Of a stretch of DNA of 64,000 bases, positions 20,241 through 64,000 are shown one piece after another. The notes below the pieces were generated by a model. The model saw only the letters and a program-made list of their open reading frames with translations. It was not told where the DNA came from and did no database searches. Position 1 is the stretch's first letter, and each line of letters begins with the position of its first letter. The stretch comes from Lytechinus pictus (Eukaryota), in the NCBI RefSeq assembly GCF_037042905.1, contig NC_087245.1, positions 34,350,001-34,414,000 of the forward strand, read 5' to 3'. The translations under genes and the position numbers were made by a program.

Positions 20241-20728
20241 TAGGCATGAGTTCGATGGTTCGAGATTTCACAAGAGGTGAAATAAAGATGCTCTATTCAA
20301 CGAGGCGTTAGCCAAGTTGAATAGAGCGTTTCTTTCACCGAATGCGAAATCTCGCACCATTGCACGATTAAGAATATTCGGTATTTGTGTTGTACAACGC
20401 CTCGGAATCTAGCTAAAATATGAAAAAAGTTTTTCCCTGCAGTAATCTATGAAAAGGGAGCAAAAATATTGAAAGCGAAAGGCAAAATCCCACAAGCCGG
20501 GCCCACAAGTGCGCGTCTTGGGCAGCATTGCGCATTTAGCCAGCATGCTATACGCATATTACACCTTCATTTTTACCGAGCGCAATGAATTAAATCGCAT
20601 TGTGACGTCACCTCCTAAAGCCGTGCAACGGTACATTTTGGATGGTACGTCGTGTGTTAACGGTACGAATGTTTGACATTCAGCCTCCCATTTGGTCGCG
20701 TACAACAAGCTAAAGTAGGCGTTGTACA
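20241..20728. repeat. ~490-bp interspersed repeat; second copy at ~57085-57563
   Basis: Two highly similar copies (AATAGGCATGAG...GTTGTACAATA) with an internal hairpin GCTCTATTCAAC...GTTGAATAGAG. Confidence 0.8.
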
Positions 20729-20756
20729 ATACCATCTATAAAGTGGTAATACTTAC

Positions 20757-20859
20757 AGCTGTGCCTTCTCCCAACACACAATCACCAGTAAAGACAGCAT
20801 TCTCCTCCTCTAGTACTAACACCATATGGTCATCAGTATGGCCGGGTGTGTAGACAACC
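20757..20859 (-). CDS. LACTB2: LACTB2 exon 4 ((R)[34 protein letters not shown])
   Basis: 103 nt, AG/GTAAGT flanks; MBL motifs TPGHT and GD. Confidence 0.95.
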
Positions 20860-22534
20860 CTAAAAATAAAGAAAGAGAGGACTAATTTAGAATGGCAGCT
20901 GATCAACGCATATAAAGTACTGAATTAAAAATTACCAGGGAAATATGCTTATGTTTATGAATCTCGAGTCAAAGGGCAACTGATGTGTTTCTTCAAAAAT
21001 GCATGACAATAAATGTAATCTACTTTAATTTAATTTAAATATTACTGAGATTTTAATGCCCATGTTTTCATTTTTTCATTTCATTTATTGTTTCTGCAAC
21101 TTTTTCAAATACAAAATAACAAAGAAAATACATAATACATAACAAAATATATAACAATAAAAAATATGAACAGGGTTGTATTTTCGATAACAATGATTTT
21201 AAGAAGGTTGCATGTGAAACTGAACAAAGAAATATAATATCATTACAGATATATCAGTGTCACAATGAAATGCATTTATTTCATTTATTCATTTTTCCCC
21301 AGCAAAGCTTGCTTTATATTTTCTTCTAAGTTTCACTCCAAGGCCAGGTTGCTAAGAGCATGGAGGTAAAAGGAATGGAGAGACAACGATATTCAAATGG
21401 CTTCAAATTTCTGAAGAAGAACAAAGGAATATTTAGGTGCACTGGTAGCCTTTGGTGACAACCTATGATGCCGCCAGTTTCATGCAAAAATTGAAAAGTG
21501 ATTTGTGTTGAAAATAGATAACTGGGATATATCCATGTTTATTTGAGCACAAAACATAGATATTGAACACAAGAAAAATGCACATCAAAGGTTTATTGTT
21601 TCCTAACATTGGGCAAAATATTGAATGATAACAGTTTTAACAGTTTTAATAATTTGACATTTCAAAAAATCAACATTTTAAGAAATGCCACAAACTTCCT
21701 CACTATAAAAATGTTATGATTAGTTTGTTGAAATACATTGATTTGTGATGCTGTGTGTCAGATCTGCGGCAAAATGTGGCCAGTCGAGTATAAATATCAA
21801 ATCATATTTTAAGAAATATTGCAACATTTATTTTCACTGTCCCCTGTAAAAGTGAGGCAGCGTTAAGTAATTATCATTATTGTATTACTGTATTTCGCCT
21901 GTAAGTCTATAGTTAGGCAGGAATCTTTTGTCTACAGCCTGCAAGAAATATGCAATGAAACACATGTGTAACATATTTATCATTGTGGCATCAAAGTGGC
22001 TATAAGGGGAAAATGTTTGATGGTTCTCCAAGTCTTCAAACTCCTTGCTAAGAGACAAGGAATAGATCTTATCAACAATGTGAAGTGAATGAGAGATGTG
22101 TGTGAGAGATTCTTTTGCTAGAACTTAATAGGATAATGTACATATCTCTTGTGTGTTGTCTACAGGGTAGTAAATTTTTTATAGGCCCTGTTTAGTTGAG
22201 CTCAATGAGCCTTTCTTTTTAACAACTGCTTGTGATACTTTGGGGAATTAGAAAATTGGGAGAAGACCCCAGTGGCTTTCCAGTAGTTTTCTTGGCATTG
22301 CATCTTTAGACTTTGTGAAGCACACATATTGCAGTCTGAGGGAGACGCCATTTTGGCTGACATCTTGATATAACTTTCAATTTCAACTTTAAATAAAAAA
22401 GCAGCTATTTTGATTGATATAGCAGCCTTTTGACTGACATTTGCTGAAGCTTTTACAAGCCTGTATGAGGTCAGATCTAAGCAGAATTCATGTTATTTTT
22501 TATGCCTGTATTGAAGAAGCCATCGCTTTTGGAC

Positions 22535-23172
22535 CATAGTCTCTTTCTCGATTCTCTGCCCCTATCTAATTCAAACTGACAACAAACAGATTGGCCTAGC
22601 TTTAGATACCTTGTAGCCTCCAACCTACCACTCCCGGCCTCGGCGATTGTGACACGACAGTCATCAGCTCAGCCTCAGCTCATGCAACCTCGACCTCACC
22701 TTCACCAAAATAGATCCTTGATCACAAAAGAAAATTTTGGACCATAGCCCCTTTCTCGATCCTCTGCCCCTATCTACTTCAAACTGACTACAAACAGATT
22801 GGCCTAGCTTTAGATACCTTGTAGCCTCCAACCTACCACTCCCGGCCTCGGCGATTGTGACACGACAGTCATCAGCTCAGCCTCAGCTTGTGCAACCTCA
22901 CCTGCACCACGATAGATCCCTTGCTCACTATCACTTTGATCACAAAAGAAAATTTTGGATGACAGCCCCTTTCTCGACCCTCTGCCCCTATCTACTTCAA
23001 ACTGACAACAAGCAGACTGGCCTAGCTTTAGATACCTTGTAGCCTCCAACCTATCCCTCGCGGCCCCGGCTTTGGCGATTATGACACGACAGTCATCAGC
23101 TCAGCCTCAGCTCATGCAACCTCGACATCACCTGCACCAAGACAGATCCCTTGCTCACTTGATCACAAAAGA
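22535..23172. repeat. Tandem repeat, ~3 units of ~220-230 bp
   Basis: GGCCTAGCTTTAGATACCTTGTAGCCTCCAACCTA...GACACGACAGTCATCAGCTCAGCCTCAGC occurs three times. Confidence 0.85.
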
Positions 23173-24403
23173 AACCAGCAGGTTCGAAGCGCTGTATGAC
23201 GTGTGCTGCACCGTACATGATCGGTCCATCGCCCCGACCTGGTGACTAGCTCGCATTGTACCGACGACCATCACGTCAAACAATGATGATCACTTGCATA
23301 GCTCTCCCCGTAACCAATGGGAAATATCATGATCTCCCAACTAAAGATGGTTCCAAGATCGGGATAAATCAACATTTAGATGATTTCCAGAATTGGGACA
23401 TTTTCCCAAGGTCGTGTCGATTTGGACTTTGACCAATGATACGAAGTACCTGACTTCAAAGGAGGTTTTCGGCTAGCAAGCTACCAGACAGATAACTTGT
23501 TGTAAAGAACAATGAGAGGAATATCAGAAACTCTTTAGAATTGAGATCGGAAATACAGACATTACTTTTTTTTTAAGATGACTGAACAGTTGATTGATGG
23601 TATTGAGAAGAGTTATTTTAAATTTGGACCCTGGTGAGATTGTAAGATGTAGGATTGTAGAGTTTTGAGCTAGAGATTAGTTGAAGATCTAGGCTCATGT
23701 TTGAAGATGTAGAAGATTTTTTAAATGTGATCACAAAATGTATTCAGAGATATTATGGTGTGAAGAAAAATTCTATAAAGACGGATCAATACAGGGTCCT
23801 TTTAAAGGAATTTTTGGCAGAGTTACAATTGTGAAAAGAAACGAAACAAAGTTAAAGGTTTAATTGAGATTTTTGAAGGGTGTTGTTATTATAGATGAAA
23901 GTGTGATACACTAAGATGTTGAAGATTAGTTTTTACTGATTAGATCAGTGCAGGATCCTTTCAGGGATATTGTATTCAGAGACAGGTTGAGTTTGATATT
24001 ACAAATTGGATCAATACATGATCCTTGGGTTTTCTTTTAATTGTGAACCGGTGAATCAGAGTGATAGGTTGACATCACTTTATCGTTTGGCTGTGTTAAT
24101 ACTATTTTTTCCACCAAATTGAACTTCAAAGAGAAATGTTTTGATATTGGAATTTTTGTATACTGAAATGAATTGTAAATTGTGATTTGGTACACACTGA
24201 GTTTATCTGACTTTTATTAGAGTCCAACCATGTGACAATCAGATAAATATAACAACAAAAAAGGTGAATGGTCACTTGATAATACAAAAACTTGGAGAGT
24301 ATGAATTAAACTTGGATTTGGGTCAACTTGAGGGAACTGAAAGCTCATAGATAATTCATATCCTGAGCCACACAAGACAATGCATAGATACAGGGATACT
24401 CAC

Positions 24404-24530
24404 CTCAATGTAGCGCCCTCTGTTGTGACCTTCTCTCCATCTTGAAGGTAGTTGTATGTGAGCTTATCTCCATTGATTGTTTCTGCTTGATATGGGTGGC
24501 GAGGCAGCTTTGAAACCTTGACATTATTCT
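24404..24530 (-). CDS. LACTB2: LACTB2 exon 3 ((E)NNVKVSKLPRHPY...YLQDGEKVTTEGATL)
   Basis: 127 nt, CAG/GTGAGT flanks, phases consistent with neighbours. Confidence 0.95.
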
Positions 24531-25223
24531 CTGAATAACACAAATAAAAGAATCAAATATTCAAGCAGAAATCTTGCATCACATTGTTTTACAAGTTGTT
24601 CAAATTCATGGATCATTTTGTACCATTAAGAAAGATTTCATCATAATTGCATTTGAATTTTCAAACTCCATTCAAATTGTAAAACCAACCCTCAACATTC
24701 ATAAATATGAGTAAATTCATAGAAAGCTGAAAATATATATTTTTAAAGTATATATTCTACTGCACCACCGGTACACATGTATATTTTTCCTGGTGCCTCA
24801 TTTGATAAAATCTTGCAAAACTTTGCCATTATGGACACTATCACTAAACATTAAAAAAATGAAAAGCTATGTAGCAAGATATTGAAAGAAATTCAATTCA
24901 ATTCACTTTATTCACATCCATTAAAAAATATACAACATACAATATTATATGAACAATAAGAAACAATCAAATTTGATCAATATGATCATGCTTGAAAATA
25001 ATTATTTTCTGTTACTTACTAATTTGCTTTATTATATTCTTATATATCTTTTATATTTATTAACTCTTTATTCATTCATTCTTTTCCATTATCTATTTTT
25101 ATAATCTCACTTCCTTTTATTTCATTTATATTTATATTTTTTTGGTGGAGGGGGGGGGGGCAGCCCTCTCCCTTTCAACACCAGGGCTTAACTTGGTAGG
25201 ATAAAAAGAAGTTGGCAGCTCAC

Positions 25224-25387
25224 CTAACTGAAGTTCTTGAAAGATATCATCAATGCCACCTACATGATCGTGATGCCAATGAGTTAGAAGAATCTCTTGT
25301 ATTGACGTCCCATTCTCAGCCAGAGTATTCCTCAGATTCTTGAGAAATTCAGGTTTGTTTTCTTCACCAGTGTCGATCAACACTCTC
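25224..25387 (-). CDS. LACTB2: LACTB2 exon 2 (RVLIDTGE...ILLTHWHHDHVGG...LQL)
   Basis: 164 nt, TAG/GTGAG flanks; metal-binding HxHxDH motif THWHHDH. Confidence 0.95.
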
Positions 25388-41751: not shown

Positions 41752-41832
41752 TATGTTGAAGAGACTAAGTGAAGATGCACTCACTAAGGAGCCTGAAGAG
41801 GTGTTTGATCTCCTAGAGAAATTGGGAGAAGG
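41752..41832 (+). CDS. STK3: Hippo/MST kinase exon 2 (MLKRLSEDALTKEPEEVFDLLEKLGEG)
   Basis: 81 nt, TAG/GTGAGT; typical MST1/2 N-terminus. Probably the single co-orthologue of STK3 and STK4. Confidence 0.95.
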
Positions 41833-43397
41833 GTGAGTAAAGTGTCTTACTTTGGATCCTAGGGCCGATTGCCCAAAAGGGTCTTTGCAAGAATTGCCTC
41901 TCGCGTCGCCCATTTATTATGCGCCATGTGAAACGCATTTTAAATAAAATACCTGCAAACATATTTTATTTGTCGTTTAACAAAATCTTTCTTTATAAAA
42001 TGATGTGATATCTCTTGAAATTGTATTAAAAAATGATTTAAAAGCTAGCTGAATTTTTTTTATTTGTTTATCTTAAATTTCAGGAACATCCTGCATATAG
42101 CTTATCATAAAAGATGGGTGACACGAAAGACAGTCCTTGGAAAGACCCTTTTGTGCAATCGGCCCCCATCTACTTCTAACAACGTGTTACAATTTAATTA
42201 AGCTTTATAAATGGAGCATTGCAAGAAAATGTTGAATAGAAAATTGTTTGATTAAAATGTTAAAGTAACAAAATATTAATGCTATTGATTTATTATTTTG
42301 AAATAAGACATATGTTTAACTACAACTTAATCGATGACTTGAATATGAAAAGCCAATGATGAGTTGTGTTCAAACATTTTTTATTGAACCAGAGATGAGT
42401 TTGGAGTAATAATCTTATTACCAATAAATATTGTCATTACAGAAACTACTGTTGGGTCTCTATTACTGGAAATAATGTCACTCTTTATATGATGAAACCC
42501 TACCAAAAAAAAACTCATCGACTTTATTTTTGTCATTTTATACTTGTTATATGTGTTGTGTAACTGTGGCAAACACGTTTCTCTATTAAAGCTAAGGCCC
42601 CAACCTAGTATAACACTCCTAAGGTCACTCTTCCCTTGTCTCCTATGATGTTCCAGTTGAAATCAAATCTCAAAAGGTCTCCTAAAATAAACAAATATAA
42701 ATGAAGGAGGAAACACACAAAGTAACACAGATCTTTACAATTGATATCAATGACATCGTTGGCTGTACTTCAAAATCTCACCTGTGCCAATGCAACCAAA
42801 TCATTGATTAATTCAATCAATTAGATGTAAGGAAATCATTGTGGTCAACCAAATACACTCTAACTGCTATTGATCAAGAACCAATGGAAGCATGGAAGGA
42901 TGGTCATAACTCATGAGATAGTTCTGCATATTAATAAGTACTATACAATGTTAACATAAAAACTATACAATGGATAAACTAGGAAGCATGACCAAGGGGA
43001 CATTGAATGAGAGAATGGAATGCAGTGAACCTGGTGAAATTCTGTTGCTATGTCAGGGATATAATGTATGTGGATCGTATTGATTCGATGAAGGATGAGG
43101 TCATTATATGGAATATTAATTAACAAATTAGATGTAAACATTGAAGTCTGGAAAGCAAAATGTTAAGGCAGGTAGTGAATAAATCCAGAAAATTTGACTT
43201 GCACTAGATGCCTATGAAAATGGCACCAAGGCTTGTGAATAGGGGATCAGCAACCATTTTCGTCACATGTAGATGACCTTCAATTCATTTTTAGGCCCCC
43301 AAAATAGATAATGATCAATAATCACTTCAGCAATTCGTTGCATATTGAAAAGTCGTAAAATAAGTTATTTTCTAATGTTTTTTTTTTCCTTTCCCAG

Positions 43398-43578
43398 TTC
43401 CTATGGAAGTGTATACAAGGCAATGCACAAGGAGTCTGGTCAGGTCTTGGCCATCAAGCAAGTACCGGTAGATACAGACCTACAAGAAATCATCAAAGAA
43501 ATCTCAATCATGCAGCAATGTGACAGCACTTACGTTGTCAAGTACTATGGAAGCTACTTCAAGAACACAGACCTCTGG
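43398..43578 (+). CDS. STK3: Hippo/MST kinase exon 3 (SYGSVYKA...LAIKQVPV...YFKNTDLW)
   Basis: 181 nt, CAG/GT; Gly loop and catalytic Lys (AIK). Confidence 0.95.
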
Positions 43579-44954
43579 GTATTTATACAAAATTTCATCA
43601 CATTTTATTCTTCTTTTTTTTCTACATTGTCTCAGACTTATAGACCCATATTCTGAACTTGGGTTTGATTTAAACACTGGACTGGTCTAAAGTTGTGGTT
43701 TGATTATTGAGAGCCATTTATGTCACATAAACCTTTTAATAAAGGAATGGTCCGGGCTGAAAATATATCTAAATAAATAGAGTAAAGTTCAAAGAGCAAA
43801 ATGCTGAAAATTTTATCAAAATCGGATAATAAATAATGAAGATATTGAATTTTAAAGTTTATCAATATTTTGTGAAAACAGTTATATGCACATCATCATG
43901 AATATTCATTAGGGGGGCTGTTGATGTCACATCTTCACTTTCCTTTTTCATATGTTATTACATGAAATCATAAATGTTTCATTTTTCATACATGTATAAA
44001 TGATGTGTCTCCATTATGATGAAAAAAGTTGCGACAATAGATAACTAATGCATTAAATCAGTTGTCAATCCAATTGTTTTAGTTCTTGGTAGAAAATTTT
44101 TGAATAAACCTAATTTCTTATAATAAAATACGAAAGAACAAGTTGGGATATGACATCATCAGCCCTATCTAATGAATATTCATAAAGACATGCCTAGAAC
44201 TGTTTCACCTGAATAATGCAAATCTTTAAATATTCAATAACTTTGTTATCCGATTTTGATCAAATTTTCAGCATTTTGCTTTGTGAATTTTACTCTATTT
44301 ATTGAGATATGAATATCTCCAGCCTGGACCATCCCTTTAAAATTATAGCTCAATTTATCAACTCATTGCAATTCAAATCATTCTTAAATGTGTAGAAGTA
44401 ATGAAAAGACAGTTGTCTCTACCATTAAAGATTGAGGAAAGAGAGCAGTAAACGTAAAGAAAAACTATATCTGCAAAATGTGTAAATTTTTGGCTTCCCA
44501 TAATTCATGCACTGAGGTAGACCAGGGTACAAATTAAACTGGGTTTCCGAATATGAGCTAAAGAGTTTTTTTTTTTTTTTTAATGTTTTTATTGAACAAA
44601 TCAAAACAAATCACAAACAATCACAAGCAATCAAAGCATTTACAAAATATTGTATCATTAAACAACAAAAAAAGAGAGGAAAAAAAAAAAAAAAAGGCAG
44701 CCTTTTTATATCCAATCTTACATCAGCTCTAATCAGAGCCAAAGAGTTACGTTTATGAGGGTAATTTTTTTTCAAATTAAAGAAGAAATACATGAGGAAT
44801 CATTTGGATCATTTAGAGGCTATTAATTTCATTTGAATCTAAAAAAATGACTTTTATGTACATCAGTATTTTGTGTACCTTTATAATCATATCAAGTTAT
44901 ATGATAAGTTGTTCATGTTTCGCCAACAATACCTCAAGGATAATCATAGGCAGA

Positions 44955-45030
44955 CTGGGTGGGATTTGAACCCATGACCTCTGGATTAATTACCAGACCA
45001 GTGTCATAACCACTAGACCACCGGAGTGCC
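44955..45030 (-). mobile_element. tRNA-like SINE head remnant
   Basis: GGTGGTCTAGTGGTTA (A box) and GGTTCAAATCCC (B box) on the minus strand, without a proper cloverleaf. Confidence 0.5.
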
Positions 45031-45932
45031 CTTCTTGATCTGGGTTCTGGATATGAAATCATATCAACTATTTGCTGTTAAATTTCCTGTGTAAGAAAAA
45101 AGTATTTTCTTACATAAATAAAGCAGTGAAATGATTTTATGGGATATTCTACATGTAGATCAGCAGGTTCATGTGGATTAATTTCTGTTCAGTGTAATAG
45201 ATTTAAAATCCCAATCTTACATCTTTTATTTTCATAATTTTTTCATGGAATATAAATGTGAGGATATTGTATTTCACCTCATCCTGTGTTTTGTAATTCA
45301 TTCGATTCCCCAAAGCTTACTCATACATTGAAATTATAGGAAATATTCCATGAGCCATCTTTTAATTGTTAAGCTATGGTCCAATTTTCATATTTTTTAA
45401 TGGAATATAAATGTGTGGAGATTCTATTTCACCTCGCCCTGTGTTTTGTAATTCATTCAATTCCCCCAAAGCTTACTCATACATTGAAATTATAGGAAAA
45501 ATTCCATGAGCCATCTTTTTAAATTGTTATGCTATGGTCCAATTTGTTCATCATGGATTCCACTGATGAGATTAAAAGCTATAGTCCAGGGGAGCGTTTC
45601 ATGAAAGGACTTGTCGGACGTTTTATCCGACAAGTCATGTATTATCCGACAATTACCATAGTAACAGTGACTCTCAGCCAATCAGAATTACGGAAAGTTG
45701 TCAGATCAGACAACTTGTCGGACAAAAATGTTAATGAAACGCTCCCCAGGCCCTGGTAATAAATCTTGAAAGTTATATATCTTGGGACTGAAGGAGGAGG
45801 GGGGGTTCTGTTCATATACAAAATAAAAGTGTTCTTAAAGCCCTCTGAGCTCTGATCAATCCCAAGTGGCATGGACATTTAATTGTACATGTTATGAGTT
45901 CACTGTATTTTCTTCTCTTGTTTCTCCTGAAG

Positions 45933-45995
45933 ATTGTAATGGAATATTGTGGAGCAGGTTCGGTATCAGATATCATGAGAAGAAGAAATAAAACG
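45933..45995 (+). CDS. STK3: Hippo/MST kinase exon 4 (IVMEYCGAGSVSDIMRRRNKT)
   Basis: 63 nt, AG/GTAAGT; hinge region. Confidence 0.95.
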
Positions 45996-46333
45996 GTAAG
46001 TATCTGGGTGCAAATGTAAAGGCTTATAGATACTAAAATGGTTAAGTTAAGTTGTATCTCGCAGAGGGAGCACAATAGTATAAAGTACTAAGTATGTATT
46101 AGTCAGGCCAGTGCACACTTTATGATTGCTTGGTGCCCCAATTTCGGGATGATATGTTGCCTTTGAACATTTGATGTAAACGTTGGATCATCAGACATCC
46201 TATAGTCAAAGTTCTGAATAGTTATCTATTAAATTCAAGCTCGTACTCTTCCTCTCTTTGTCTGTTATCCATTCAAATTTGGATTTTCTGTAATTTTACT
46301 GTATTTGTCTTTTTATGTTTCTGTTTTATTTAG

Positions 46334-46498
46334 TTGAGTGAAGCTGAAATAGCAACTATTCTCTACTCCACTTTGAAAGGCCTAGAGTATCTCCATTTCA
46401 TGAGGAAAATACACCGAGACATCAAAGCAGGAAACATACTTCTCAACAATGAGGGCAATGCTAAACTCGCTGATTTCGGTGTTGCGGGGCAGCTCACT
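46334..46498 (+). CDS. STK3: Hippo/MST kinase exon 5 (LSEAEIA...[12 protein letters not shown]...[10 protein letters not shown])
   Basis: 165 nt, TAG/GTAAGT; HRD and DFG motifs. Confidence 0.97.
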
Positions 46499-47056
46499 GT
46501 AAGTCCTTGAAAAAGCCTTCTCCAGCTTTAGATTTGTGCTTTTTCGATTATTGCATTTTCTTTCTATCTACGTACTCTCCATTGTAATGTACTCAAACTG
46601 CAGAGTTGCAATCTCATTTTGAAATAATGTATTTAATGATTTAACCTTGCAGCAGTCAAACTTTAGGATAAACTGTCTCTTGAAATAAGATTAAACTCTC
46701 CTCACATTGATGATTGAAACTAATTTTATTTGCAGGAGCTCTTGATCATCTCTTTTTTTTTAGAATTATGTCTCACAGTGAAAACAATATATCTCTTTAA
46801 TTAAGAATAATTAAAAAGGTATGCTATAATTATTAACAAAAATGTGAATTTGGCAGTTTCAGTCGACGATGGAACTTCCTGTGCGCAGTGTTGTTAGTCT
46901 TTTACAGAGTGTCTCTTTTCTCTTTTCTTGCATCAATCAAAGCATATTCTATTTTGCAGACATTTGTAGCAAATTTTGCACAGAGCCAAGTCAAGGGGGA
47001 AAAGAATAGCGTAGATAGATGATCTTCATTATTTCCTTCAGGATACACTGCTATAA

Positions 47057-48113
<1,057 letters not shown>

Positions 48114-48764
48114 GTGTTTGAATTCTTGATGTTATGGTGGTATGCAATTGATACCTCAAATTTCTTCATTATTATCTTGATGTATGAATGACCACCCTAT
48201 CTGTGCGTAGCTGGAAAGGTAATATTGATTCTGAATCCTAGAAAGTTGCTAACTGCTTTTAGTGCATTTCATTTCCTGATTTTATAGTCGTCCTCTGTAT
48301 GGAATGATTTTGATTTCGGAAGCTGAATCTTGGACAATTCCCCCGTATACATTGTCACTACATCCGACTTACCAAGTACTAGGTGGGATGAATATTGTGT
48401 GCCAAAGACTAATAAAGTGAGATCCATATTTATGAAAATAATTTCCCTTGTGTGATTAGTATTCATGTATGTATATATTTATAACCACTGGAAGTGGGGC
48501 AGAAGGAGTATTGCCACAGTTATCCAGTTAACTGCCCCTGACATTCCAGTGGTTAATTTCTATTCCTATTGTTCATTCTTTGATATTTGAATTGAATGTA
48601 TTCATTATGTAATTTTCTTTTTGCCAAACGAATATTATACTAGTAGTTGAGCAGCTATCTAGTTACCTCTTTTATCCAAAAATGACAAACTCAAAATTCT
48701 GGTCAGAGTTGGTTGCAACATAATCACAATATGCCTCTGTCTTGAATTTCACCATCTCGTACAG

Positions 48765-48902
48765 GCGATCTTCATGATCCCGACAAAACCTCCTCCTACG
48801 TTTAGAGATCCTGAGAAATGGTCTCAAGACTTCATTGATTTCACATCCAAGTGCCTGATCAAGAGCCCAGAAGACAGAGCAACAGCAACAGATTTATTAC
48901 AG
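48765..48902 (+). CDS. STK3: Hippo/MST kinase exon 7 (AIFMIPTKPPPTF...RATATDLLQ)
   Basis: 138 nt, CAG/GTAAGT. Confidence 0.95.
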
Positions 48903-50096
48903 GTAAGTGCTGGTCCGGGCAAGGTGCCACAAATCAAAGTTCAGGGCCCCACCTTACAAATAGTTACAATAGATCTGGGCCCCGTCTTACAAAGAGTAAC
49001 GATTGATCCAATCAATAGTAACTATGAAAATCCATCAGTGTCATAACTTTTTTCCAGGAAATTTGCAAAATGTCCTTTGTAAACAAAGGAGACCACACCA
49101 AAGTGTCAAGAAATCAATGAATTTATGGATATACATTCATATCTACAATGTATATATTTTTTTAACAAACATGCATTTTATATGTTGACTTTGCTGGCTT
49201 TCCATAGTTGCGATTGATCAGATCATTTGCAACTCTTTGAAAGACGGGGCCCTGATCAACCTCAACTATATGGAAATCCATCAATGGCATAATTTTTTCC
49301 TCCAGGAAATTTGCCCAATGTTCTTTGTAAACAAAGAAAAGCACACTAAATTCACAAGAAATTGAATAGAAATATGAATAGACGATATATCTCGAAAATA
49401 TTTTGAACAAACATGCGTTTCAGATGTTGACGTGGCTGGCTTTCCATAGTTGTGGTTGATCGGATTAATTGCAAGTGTTTGTGAGACAAGCCCCAAGAAT
49501 ATCTGTGTATTAAAATAAATGCCAGAAGAGTTAACAATCTGTGCCGGCCACACAAAAACATTGTAAGCGTTCACAGAGCTCTAACAGTAGGCCCAGTTTC
49601 ATCTTTCGTATTGTGATATCAAGATGTGAATAACTTGTTGTTGTGACATTAGGCATCCCTGCAACTATACCAGTTGTAACAGGGCCCGTGTTAGCGGATT
49701 GTTAGCACTAACGATGTGTCTGTGCAGCGGGTACTGAACATGAGTTCAACCTGAATCAAAGGAAAAGACATCCAAATTTTTAGCTGTCTAGATTAAAAAG
49801 GGGGTCAAGTGATTCTGGGAGAATAATTATAATTTCTGAGAAATTGAAAAAAACTCTTTAAGTATCATTGACCTTAAATTCCAATCCCTTAACTACACAG
49901 ATTCAGGTCAATCAAAATTTTAGTTTGAAACAAATCTATCGCAACTCTTTATTAGACGGGGCCCAGAAGTCAAACATGAGCAAAATTCCAGCATGAAAAA
50001 GTTTTGATATTCCATACAAAATTTATGATAAACTAGAGATTGAAAAACTGTTTCTGAAAACAAAGCTCGATTATTCTGCTTTCTCTGTGTATCTAG

Positions 50097-50210
50097 CACC
50101 CGTTTGTTAGGGATGCTAAACCAGTTTCAATTCTCAACACTATGATCAACGAGGCCAATCACATCAGAGAGAGAGAAAAGCTCAAGGAAGATGATGACGA
50201 TGAAGGATCT
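50097..50210 (+). CDS. STK3: Hippo/MST kinase exon 8 (HPFVRDAKPVSILNTMINEA...EDDDDEGS)
   Basis: 114 nt, TAG/GTGAGT; end of kinase domain. Confidence 0.92.
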
Positions 50211-52589: not shown

Positions 52590-52619
52590 GATTTTGAGGA
52601 TGATATATACACCATTGTG
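52590..52619 (+). CDS. Candidate 30-nt cassette microexon A (DFEDDIYTIV)
   Basis: CTAAC branch-like motif, TTTTCTCAG acceptor, GTG|GTAAGG donor, phase 0/0 as required in this intron. Confidence 0.5.
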
Positions 52620-59195: not shown

Positions 59196-59225
59196 GAGGA
59201 AGAGGAGGATACGGAGGTTAGACTG
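59196..59225 (+). CDS. Candidate 30-nt cassette microexon B (EEEEDTEVRL)
   Basis: TACTAACCAG acceptor, CTG|GTAAGC donor, purine-rich body, phase 0/0. Confidence 0.5.
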
Positions 59226-61741: not shown

Positions 61742-61934
61742 GATGATGAGGATGTTGACAGTGGAACCATGGTAAGAGGGAAAGCCCCCGTGATCGGTGA
61801 TGACGACAACGGTACCATGATCATCAGTGGCTCGGCAGGGAACACGGCAAACACCTTCATTGAACATGAGGACGTAACGGACATTGATAGTGGAACCATG
61901 ATTGAACATGGTACAATGATTGATCATGATAGTG
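61742..61934 (+). CDS. STK3: Hippo/MST kinase exon 9 (DDEDVDSGTMVR...GTMIDHDS); linker with caspase-like site
   Basis: 193 nt, CAG/GTGAGT; EDVD-SGTMVR corresponds to the MST1 DEMD-SGTMVR region. Confidence 0.9.
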
Positions 61935-61970
61935 GTGAGTTCACAGAACTTTGTTCACTATTATATCCTT

Positions 61971-62543
61971 GGTTACACTTCGTAATTCCGAAGGTTCGTA
62001 ATTCCGAAGATTCTTTATTTCGAAGGTTCGTAATTCCGAAACACGTAAATTGCCTATACCTCGATGTTCGTTAATCCGAAAACATAAAAGGGTTCGTTAA
62101 TCCGAACATTTGTGGCGTTATTCCGAAGGTTCGTTATTCCGAAGGTTTGATAATCCAAAAACGAAATAAGGTTCGATGTTCCGAAGGCTCGTTAGTTCGA
62201 AAACGAAATAAGGTTCGTTGTTCCGAAGGTTCGTTAATCCGAAAACGAAATAAGGTTCGTTGTTCCGAAGGTTCGTTAGTCCGAAAACCAAACAAGGTTC
62301 GTTAATCATTACGTTTTCGGACTAACGAACCTTCGGAATTACGAACCTCATTTCTTTTTCGGATCAACGAACCTTCGGAATTACGAACCTCACTTTGTTT
62401 TCGGACTAACGAACCTTCGGAATTACGAACCTCATTTCGTTTTCGGGCTTACGAACCTTCGGAATTACGAACCTTCGGAAATACCAACCTTCGGAATAAC
62501 GAACCTTCGGAATAACGAAGCTTCGGAATTACGAATGTATGCG
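61971..62543. mobile_element. Foldback-like element made of inverted TTCCGAAGGTTCG tandem arrays, with 8-bp TSD
   Basis: ATATCCTT at 61963-61970 and 62544-62551; left arm (TTCCGAAGGTTCG)n, right arm (CGAACCTTCGGAA)n. Confidence 0.8.
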
Positions 62544-62545
62544 AT

Positions 62546-62812
62546 ATCCTTGATACTGGAGCTATGATAGAACATGGTACAATGATTGATCATGATAGTG
62601 GTGAGTTCACAGAACTGTTCACAGAACTTTATGCACTATTATATCCTTGATAGTGGAGCTATGATAGAACATGGTACAATGATTGATCATGATAGTGATG
62701 AGTTCACAGAACTGTTCACAGAACTTTATTCACTATTATATCCTTGATAGTGGAGCTATGATAGAACATGGTACAATGATTGATCATGATAGTGGTGAGT
62801 GTATAGAACTTT
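62546..62812 (+). repeat. Three extra tandem copies (~97 bp) of the exon-9 3' end plus donor
   Basis: TTGATAGTGGAGCTATGATAGAACATGGTACAATGATTGATCATGATAGTG-GTGAGT repeated; the middle copy has GT mutated to AT. Confidence 0.9.
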
Positions 62813-63750
62813 ATATTGCCCTCTCAGTCTTTTCATCCTATGGTATTCTTTTCTTTTGTGTGACCAGGACATGGGAAGTCTTCAGGACAGTTACCATAGT
62901 AACAATCAGACCCCACTGCTTGTCAGCCAATCAAAATCGAGGAAAGATGTCAGACTAACAACTTGAGTTCAGTTCTGAAAATCTAATTTCTGAGCTCTCA
63001 AATGATGTCAATTATGGAGGCGATCATATGAAACACGCTAGTGCATTGTTAGGATGCACTGCATATTTTATTTTAACGCTCTTCTATTGTGATTGGCATC
63101 TAAAAAACTTATTAAAAGTTACATATATTTACATCCCTGTTGGGTGTTTCATAAAGCTGTTCGTAAGATACGAATGACTTTACGCACGACTGGTGATAAT
63201 TTCTTGTGCTATGTAATATCCTTATGTAATTGAGTTATGACATAAGAACATGTTCCAGTCGTGCGTAAAGTCATGCGTAACTTTACGAACAGCTTTATGA
63301 AACATCCACCAGATATGTACATTTAAACGCACTTATTTAGTTATTTTGAGATTTGAAGAAACAAAAATTCTGTCATTCCAGTTCATATTTTACATCTTTA
63401 ACTGACTGTCAGTCTATGCCAGAGATACAGTTTCTACACAAAGTGAGTGCATCCTTCACAAAAAAACATATTTCACCGTAGCTCATCATCAAAATGATAA
63501 GCTGGTATAAAGAATAGAGAACACCGGATAGGATACCTCATTTTCTTTTGACAATAAAGCATTTGTTCCTATTAAAAACAAAGATCCATACATATTGTGT
63601 ATATTTTTTGTATAAACATACATGTATCCATAGAGGGTATGATGTACATTGTGTACTCACTCCTGAAGGATATTGTACATGCTCAGAGACTATTGCGCAA
63701 TAATGGTTTGGACATCATCTCACATGAATGTTGTTTTTTGCATCATTTAG

Positions 63751-63993
63751 GGACCATGATAGAACATGGCACAATGATTGACCACGATAGCGGGACCATG
63801 ATCGACCACGATAGCGGGACCATGATCGACCACGATAGCGGGACCATGATCGACCATGATAGCGGCACGATGGTGGACCACGACAGTGGGACGATGATCA
63901 AACATGGAAGTTTGAACGACCTGGAATCCAATATGGGCACCATGGTTATTAACAATGATGACAGCGATTCGGGTAATGACGGAACGATGAAGA
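63751..63993 (+). CDS. STK3: Hippo/MST kinase exon 10 (GTMIEHGTMIDHDSGTM... DLESNMGTMVIN...DGTMK); gene continues past the window
   Basis: 243 nt, TAG/GTAAGT, phase 1/1; GTMVIN and GTMK are conserved MST linker motifs; contains a 24-nt coding tandem repeat. Confidence 0.9.
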
Positions 63994-64000
63994 GTAAGTA

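Follow-up and report, generated by a model that had tools for sequence, protein, structure and literature searches.

Why does the Hippo kinase gene of the sea urchin Lytechinus pictus encode 13 Gly-Thr-Met (GTM) motifs in its linker, and which binding partner would so many sites serve? These questions were examined in a window of 64,000 nucleotides (contig NC_087245.1, positions 34,350,001 to 34,414,000). Multisite docking through phosphorylated Thr-Met (pTM) motifs, together with a rheostat between MOB1 and SLMAP, has been published for MST1/2 and fly Hpo (review, PMC6131212), and the physiological meaning of the TM redundancy in MST2 was stated as unknown by Ni et al. (PMC4511216). Searches of the open-licence literature listed no report of an expanded Hippo linker in echinoderms or cnidarians. 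The mechanism is already known; the natural expansion described here is real, its peptide is selected, and the gain is a test case.

Gene structure of the Hippo locus

The window holds the 3' part of a Hippo/MST1/2 gene on the + strand. The kinase-domain exons (41753-50210) lie at about 41753-41833, 43398-43578, 45933-45995, 46334-46498, 47159-47326, 48765-48902 and 50097-50210, and encode an N-terminal Ste20-type kinase nearest to MST1/2 with the activation loop TDTMAKRNT. The corresponding L. pictus STK4-like protein in RefSeq (P0033), annotated there as an ordinary STK3/4, has a linker that agrees with the translated exons of the window, and its best PDB matches were human STK3/STK4, which filled the top ten rows at E values of 1e-159 or lower, MST3/4 following at 1e-95. 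P0033 also aligned to the SARAH domain of MST2, and its cluster representative carried PF11629; the window ends before the HS motif and the SARAH domain, which are known from P0033 alone.

Two optional acidic 30-nt micro-exons of phase 0 (52590-52619 and 59196-59225, + strand), present or absent among the RefSeq isoforms, sit just upstream of the linker. The former ends in YTIV, which also occurs in the Asterias isoform P0036 and possibly marks a conserved Tyr site. The preliminary description of this DNA had called the two linker exons 9 and 10; both exons exist as described, but the numbering omits the micro-exons, and it is retained below only as a label.

The linker exons and the 24-nt array

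Exon 9 (61742-61934) and exon 10 (63751-63993), both on the + strand and bounded by canonical AG/GT ends, meet at a phase-1 junction that splits a Gly codon, and together encode the 13 GTM motifs in one open frame. The count given earlier was thus reproduced by in-frame translation and agreed with the RefSeq linker of L. pictus. GTM matches in the window DNA comprised these 13, three in intronic copies and two unrelated ones, compared with a mean of 5.3 and a maximum of 11 after shuffling, and 20,000 shuffles of the 145-residue linker gave a mean of 1.5 TM and at most 8, against the 13 observed.

Exon 9 carries sites 1-4. Site 1 is of the T325-like SLMAP type with Arg at +3, site 2 has hydrophobic residues at +1 to +3, and sites 3-4 make up the first of two 14-residue blocks; these blocks, already noticed earlier, flank the intron and encode the same peptide, their DNA differing at 6 of 43 nt. 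Exon 10 carries sites 5-13 and contains the 24-nt coding tandem array (63774-63899), whose 8-residue unit is of the MST2 T349 / MST1 T353 type. Tandem Repeats Finder (TRF) gave 5.2 copies with 88% matches. The array is real, but "near-perfect", the earlier wording, holds only for the first three units, which are 0-1 nt apart, the last two of the five differing by 3-6 nt. Site 11 (63888-63896) has Lys at +3 in Lytechinus and Asn in S. purpuratus. Site 12 (63936-63944) and site 13 (63981-63992) are the equivalents of MST2 T364 and T378, the latter showing the full SLMAP consensus after joining to the next exon.

In its kinase-linker-SARAH layout, and in the equivalents of T325, T364 and T378 and the HS motif at near-identical spacing, the protein resembles human MST2 (PMC4511216, PMC5663475). 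MST2 has seven pTM motifs and one HS motif; the urchin protein differs in having 13 TM against those seven, the extra sites being tandem T349-type copies, and in having its linker exon split by an intron. The roughly twofold excess over MST2 reported at the outset is correct, and arises because one motif has been copied in tandem.

The AlphaFold model placed residues 307-485 in coil with pLDDT<50 and began a helix at residue 486, at the HS motif, so that the predicted linker is disordered and carries several TM dipeptides, as in the phospho-docking linkers of MST1/2. A single HS motif, FLEHY, follows site 13 by 16 residues in P0033, beyond the window, within the 15-20 residues characteristic of such linkers. 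A folded repeat of the beta-solenoid kind was also considered and set aside, the low-confidence coil of the model speaking weakly against it.

Type of docking site amplified

The docking-site logic assigned to the TM linker is borne out by the human MST1/2 literature. A 15-mer around MST1 pT353 (pT-M-I-E-H), lacking an HS motif, bound MOB1A at 280 nM and was the best stand-alone site tested, the consensus from the MOB1 array favours hydrophobic residues at +1 to +3 although Glu at +3 is tolerated in T353, and Lys at +2 is preferred by the MST kinases (PMC5461540). For SLMAP the preferred motif is E/D-G-pT-M-x-R/K, and the sites it uses are T325, T336 and T378 (PMC5663475).

The pT353-like site, single in MST1, occurs eightfold in the urchin linker: the context pT-M-I-E-H is exact in two copies, and the other six have D for E or V for I, while the residues upstream are S/H-G in the urchin and A-N in MST1 (PMC5461540). 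The residue at +3 of these eight copied sites is Glu in two and Asp in six. Positions +1/+2 are hydrophobic in 12 of the 13 sites, although the MOB1 array consensus also prefers a hydrophobic +3, and Lys at +2 is missing from the repeat units. Arg or Lys at +3, on the other hand, was found in none of the eight copied sites and in only three of all 13 (sites 1, 11 and 13), of which site 13 alone fits the whole SLMAP consensus. It had been proposed that the repeat multiplies docks for both MOB1 and SLMAP; the acidic +3 residues place the copied sites off the SLMAP consensus, and this part of the proposal was not supported.

To classify sites, a hydrophobic +2 with a non-basic +3 was taken as MOB1 type and a basic +3 as SLMAP type, a rule that on MST2 recovers T349, T356 and T364 as well as T325 and T378, but fails to capture T336 or the dual role of T378. 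By this rule the ratio of MOB1-type to SLMAP-type sites was 10:3 in the urchin and 3:2 in MST2. Across 105 Hippo proteins the number of SLMAP-type sites stayed at 0-3 regardless of the TM total (rho 0.18), whereas that of MOB1-type sites followed it (rho 0.87, a value partly built into the class definitions and drawn from non-independent rows). Since the copied sites would suit MOB1 and fit SLMAP poorly, the expansion is predicted to have raised the MOB1-type sites (10 versus 3) and left the SLMAP-type sites at 2-3.

Selection on the repeated peptide

Across the units in the window, six of 8 residues and two of 6, silent changes numbered 11 and replacements two, where a silent share of 0.18-0.24 was expected (P 3e-7 to 9e-6; part of the silent excess could come from gene conversion or CpG decay). 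The large excess of silent over replacement changes indicates that the peptide is selected. The Thr residues at the positions of MST2 T325, T364 and T378 were invariant in all 26 aligned proteins, the array having been inserted between T325 and T364, and the T364 and T378 equivalents lie 31 and 16 residues from HS, compared with 29 and 15 in MST2.

Distribution of the expansion

The best 120 of 1376 kinase-matched proteins were surveyed, 105 of which were parsed and 15 dropped; the rows are non-independent (isoforms, many mammals) and, having been picked by similarity to the urchin kinase, lean towards urchin-like kinases. Three rows of the tree were badly trimmed (19% filled), none bearing on the argument. 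TM number ranged from 2 to 14 across these Hippo proteins. The count across deuterostome orthologues suggested in the preliminary description turned out high in urchins (8-14; Diadema 8, L. variegatus 12, L. pictus and S. purpuratus 13, with 14 in P0001 through a point change at unchanged unit number), starfish (10 in three genera) and sea cucumbers (8-10; Holothuria 8, Apostichopus 10), but was only 4 in two crinoids, including Anneissia. Amphioxus had 6 and Styela 5.

Fifteen of the 105 rows had at least 8 TM, namely 11 echinoderm proteins and four from one jellyfish clade that contains Sanderia. The starfish and sea cucumber linkers (P0036, P0007, P0010, P0012, P0013) share with the urchin an 8-residue period at an equivalent place and carry 8-10 TM, but have fewer copies and a homogenised unit of their own in each lineage. 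Eight residues was the commonest spacing in every non-crinoid echinoderm row with at least eight sites, which ruled out a separate unit length for each class. Judged from these comparisons, the echinoderm array is old, its 8-residue period being found in urchins, starfish and sea cucumbers and not in crinoids. Because each lineage has its own homogenised unit, a single old expansion with turnover and parallel expansions both fit.

The jellyfish-clade linkers (Sanderia malayensis P0020; P0053, P0014, P0022) likewise carry 8-10 TM with tandem GTMIE just upstream of the T364 equivalent, but with a 7-residue period in P0020 and P0053, irregular spacing in P0014 and P0022, and no sites with R/K at +3. 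As this clade stands apart from the echinoderms, with 3-4 TM in the rows that are its sisters, its array is a second expansion.

A homologue search with the SARAH domain alone returned 11 echinoderm rows, all already in the kinase-based set, and the urchin-type array was absent from all four loci found by a metagenome scan. Among 150 representatives at 50% identity, 108 were parsed, most without HS or SARAH, and 8 TM were counted in P0013, P0198 and P0268, which we treat as a lead only. The distant Ste20-type kinases P0268, P0198 and P0250 have 6-8 TM after the kinase domain, P0250 carrying TM in a tandemly repeated unit of 10 residues. Recurrent gain of TM motifs may extend far beyond animals.

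Transcription and copy number

Two RNA runs from a related organism covered exon 10 at a depth like that of a kinase exon: the summed depth of its bin was about 10 and 6, compared with 4.1 and 4.6 for a kinase exon and 0.2 or less for two unique intron bins, and its DNA depth was single-copy. At fixed positions in the exons these reads disagree with the window, and their source looks like a sister species. P0001, a 576-residue Logan protein, carries both linker exons in frame, and the size of its contigs, at most 2309 nt, points to a spliced transcript.

Urchin species differ from one another by one or two array units (TM 12, 13 and 13-14). Within species no length difference was seen, two accessions each of L. 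pictus and of L. variegatus being identical (very few sequences, perhaps non-independent) and the RefSeq sequence of S. purpuratus and Logan P0001 having equal unit numbers. The idea that repeat number acts as a copy-number-variable rheostat therefore went unsupported, changes being seen only between species and none within species in the few sequences compared. That a length-polymorphic minisatellite should tune Hippo output between individuals through its alleles seems to us most improbable. It is true that three units are only 0-1 nt apart, which implies recent turnover, that the I-I-I-V order of L. pictus contrasts with alternating V-I in L. variegatus and S. purpuratus, and that over 63588-63999 a related organism's contig shows 29 gaps, which would accommodate the loss of one unit. 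Same-species sequences nevertheless share their unit number, few and perhaps non-independent as they are, and one unit in 13 is a weak lever because binding is redundant and one-at-a-time (PMC4511216). A better lead than an individual copy-number rheostat is the type-specific amplification of MOB1 sites in at least two lineages.

Proposed mechanism and alternatives

We consider it probable that the array is a selected, redundant phospho-docking array biased to MOB1. One phospho-docking unit would have been copied in tandem upstream of a fixed T364-T378-HS cassette, within a predicted disordered linker between kinase and SARAH domains. By analogy with human MST1/2, the activated kinase would phosphorylate the Thr of each TM, and each copied site would bind one MOB1 via its pT pocket while fitting the FHA domain of SLMAP poorly. 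The likely effect would be a sturdier, phosphatase-buffered capture of MOB1 relative to STRIPAK feedback, presumably fixed at the level of species or class and not by single repeat alleles.

This proposal is weakened by work on MST2, in which MOB1 is bound by no more than one pTM at once and the four working sites are those nearest to the single HS; Ni et al. proposed a limit on the distance to HS and suggested phosphatase buffering (PMC4511216). The working MST2 sites lie within 44 residues of HS, whereas only 3 of the 13 urchin sites lie within 47, so that most urchin copies are distant from it. Those MST2 sites that fail, however, also depart from the MOB1 sequence consensus, so that distance may not be the cause. 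Since the urchin copies mostly fit in sequence yet lie far from HS, they could separate a distance-to-HS model from a sequence-consensus model. A bolder version, which we put forward as doubtful, is that Hippo linkers have repeatedly and selectively amplified an HS-independent MOB1 site, with SLMAP sites capped at three, several MOB1 molecules loaded at once and the ratio of the two site types serving as an evolvable dial between activation and STRIPAK feedback; its scope would be echinoderms other than crinoids and, separately, jellyfish.

Tolerated slippage, by which function depends on the equivalents of T325, T364 and T378 alone and the other units form an innocuous acidic spacer, free to expand because the linker is disordered, would accord with a TM number that varies from 2 to 14, with crinoids that manage on 4, with the position of most copies past the HS distance that worked in MST2, and with two further tandem duplications of exon ends in the Hippo gene. 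We regard it as unlikely, since silent changes far outnumber replacements among the units, the TM core has been retained in urchins, starfish and sea cucumbers, and a jellyfish clade expanded a GTMIE-type unit at the equivalent place. It also seems quite improbable that the copied pT-x-x-D/E sites serve a phospho-reader outside MOB1-to-LATS signalling, such as another MOB or a +3-Asp FHA protein, or that they soak up phosphatase as decoys. Some FHA domains prefer pT-x-x-D, and six units have Asp at +3; the phosphatase buffering suggested by Ni et al. (PMC4511216) would suit a decoy, and every human MOB except MOB2 binds the MST1 phosphopeptide (PMC5461540). The +3 residue, though, differs among lineages (D, E, T) while +1/+2 stay hydrophobic, which better suits MOB-type reading.

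The preliminary description had further suggested that the repeated DHD-S adds caspase sites. L. pictus has five IDHD-S and one VDHD-S, and Asterias has IEHD-S and VEHD-S. Caspase-3/7 cleave after D-x-x-D followed by a small residue, a pattern from which the units depart in reading I/V-D-H-D-S, nearer to VEHD/LEHD. VEHD is a preferred caspase-6 scaffold (PMC9977399), and MST1 is cleaved at D326, also by caspase-1 (PMC11804562). The two jellyfish-clade arrays checked have no such sites, however, and the Apostichopus units have Asp at P1', so that the feature is not shared among the expansions and is incidental at most. An equivalent of the D322/D326 site, EDVD-S, moreover already lies upstream, and a single cut suffices to remove SARAH. 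We accordingly hold it very improbable that the chief role of the array is to supply caspase sites (I/V-x-H-D then S) for release of the kinase domain.

With the MOB1-biased docking array as the preferred reading, the linkers compared here form a natural series of sites (crinoid 4, human 7, starfish 10, urchin 12-14, jellyfish clade 8-10) that differ mainly in one site type, and could be used to test whether site number or site type sets Hippo output.

Intronic repeats and neighbouring sequence

The intron between the linker exons (61935-63750) falls exactly between the two 14-residue blocks of identical peptide. The open frames P0011, P0016 and P0018 and the locus L004 carry the whole linker unbroken, and the mid-linker intron therefore looks like a gain in urchins. 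It contains three copies, each of 97 bp, in which the 3' end of exon 9 is repeated together with the donor site (62544-62800, + strand). The first Thr is changed to Ala in all three, which points to one event, and the donor is gone from the middle copy. Copies 2 and 3 have a weak AG that could yield a 39-nt in-frame cassette with one extra TM, but only copy 3 has both this AG and the donor. The last copy runs on into intron sequence that is also present in the related organism's contig.

A foldback-like high-copy element (61972-62543) with 16/42-nt subrepeats in inverted arms is inserted at the junction of this duplication; it is intronic, lies outside the coding array, is flanked by a 9-bp direct repeat (61963-61971 and 62544-62552), and had very high DNA depth in reads of the related organism. 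Another exon-end duplication in the Hippo gene, a 119-bp tandem array at 47226-48113 (7.4 copies, 94%), consists of the 3' part of kinase exon 47159-47326 plus its donor and extends into the intron. On the minus strand, positions 20700-25300 of the window contain exon-like frames with HWHHDHVGG and TPGHTDDH, which suggest a neighbouring LACTB2-like gene of the metallo-beta-lactamase fold.
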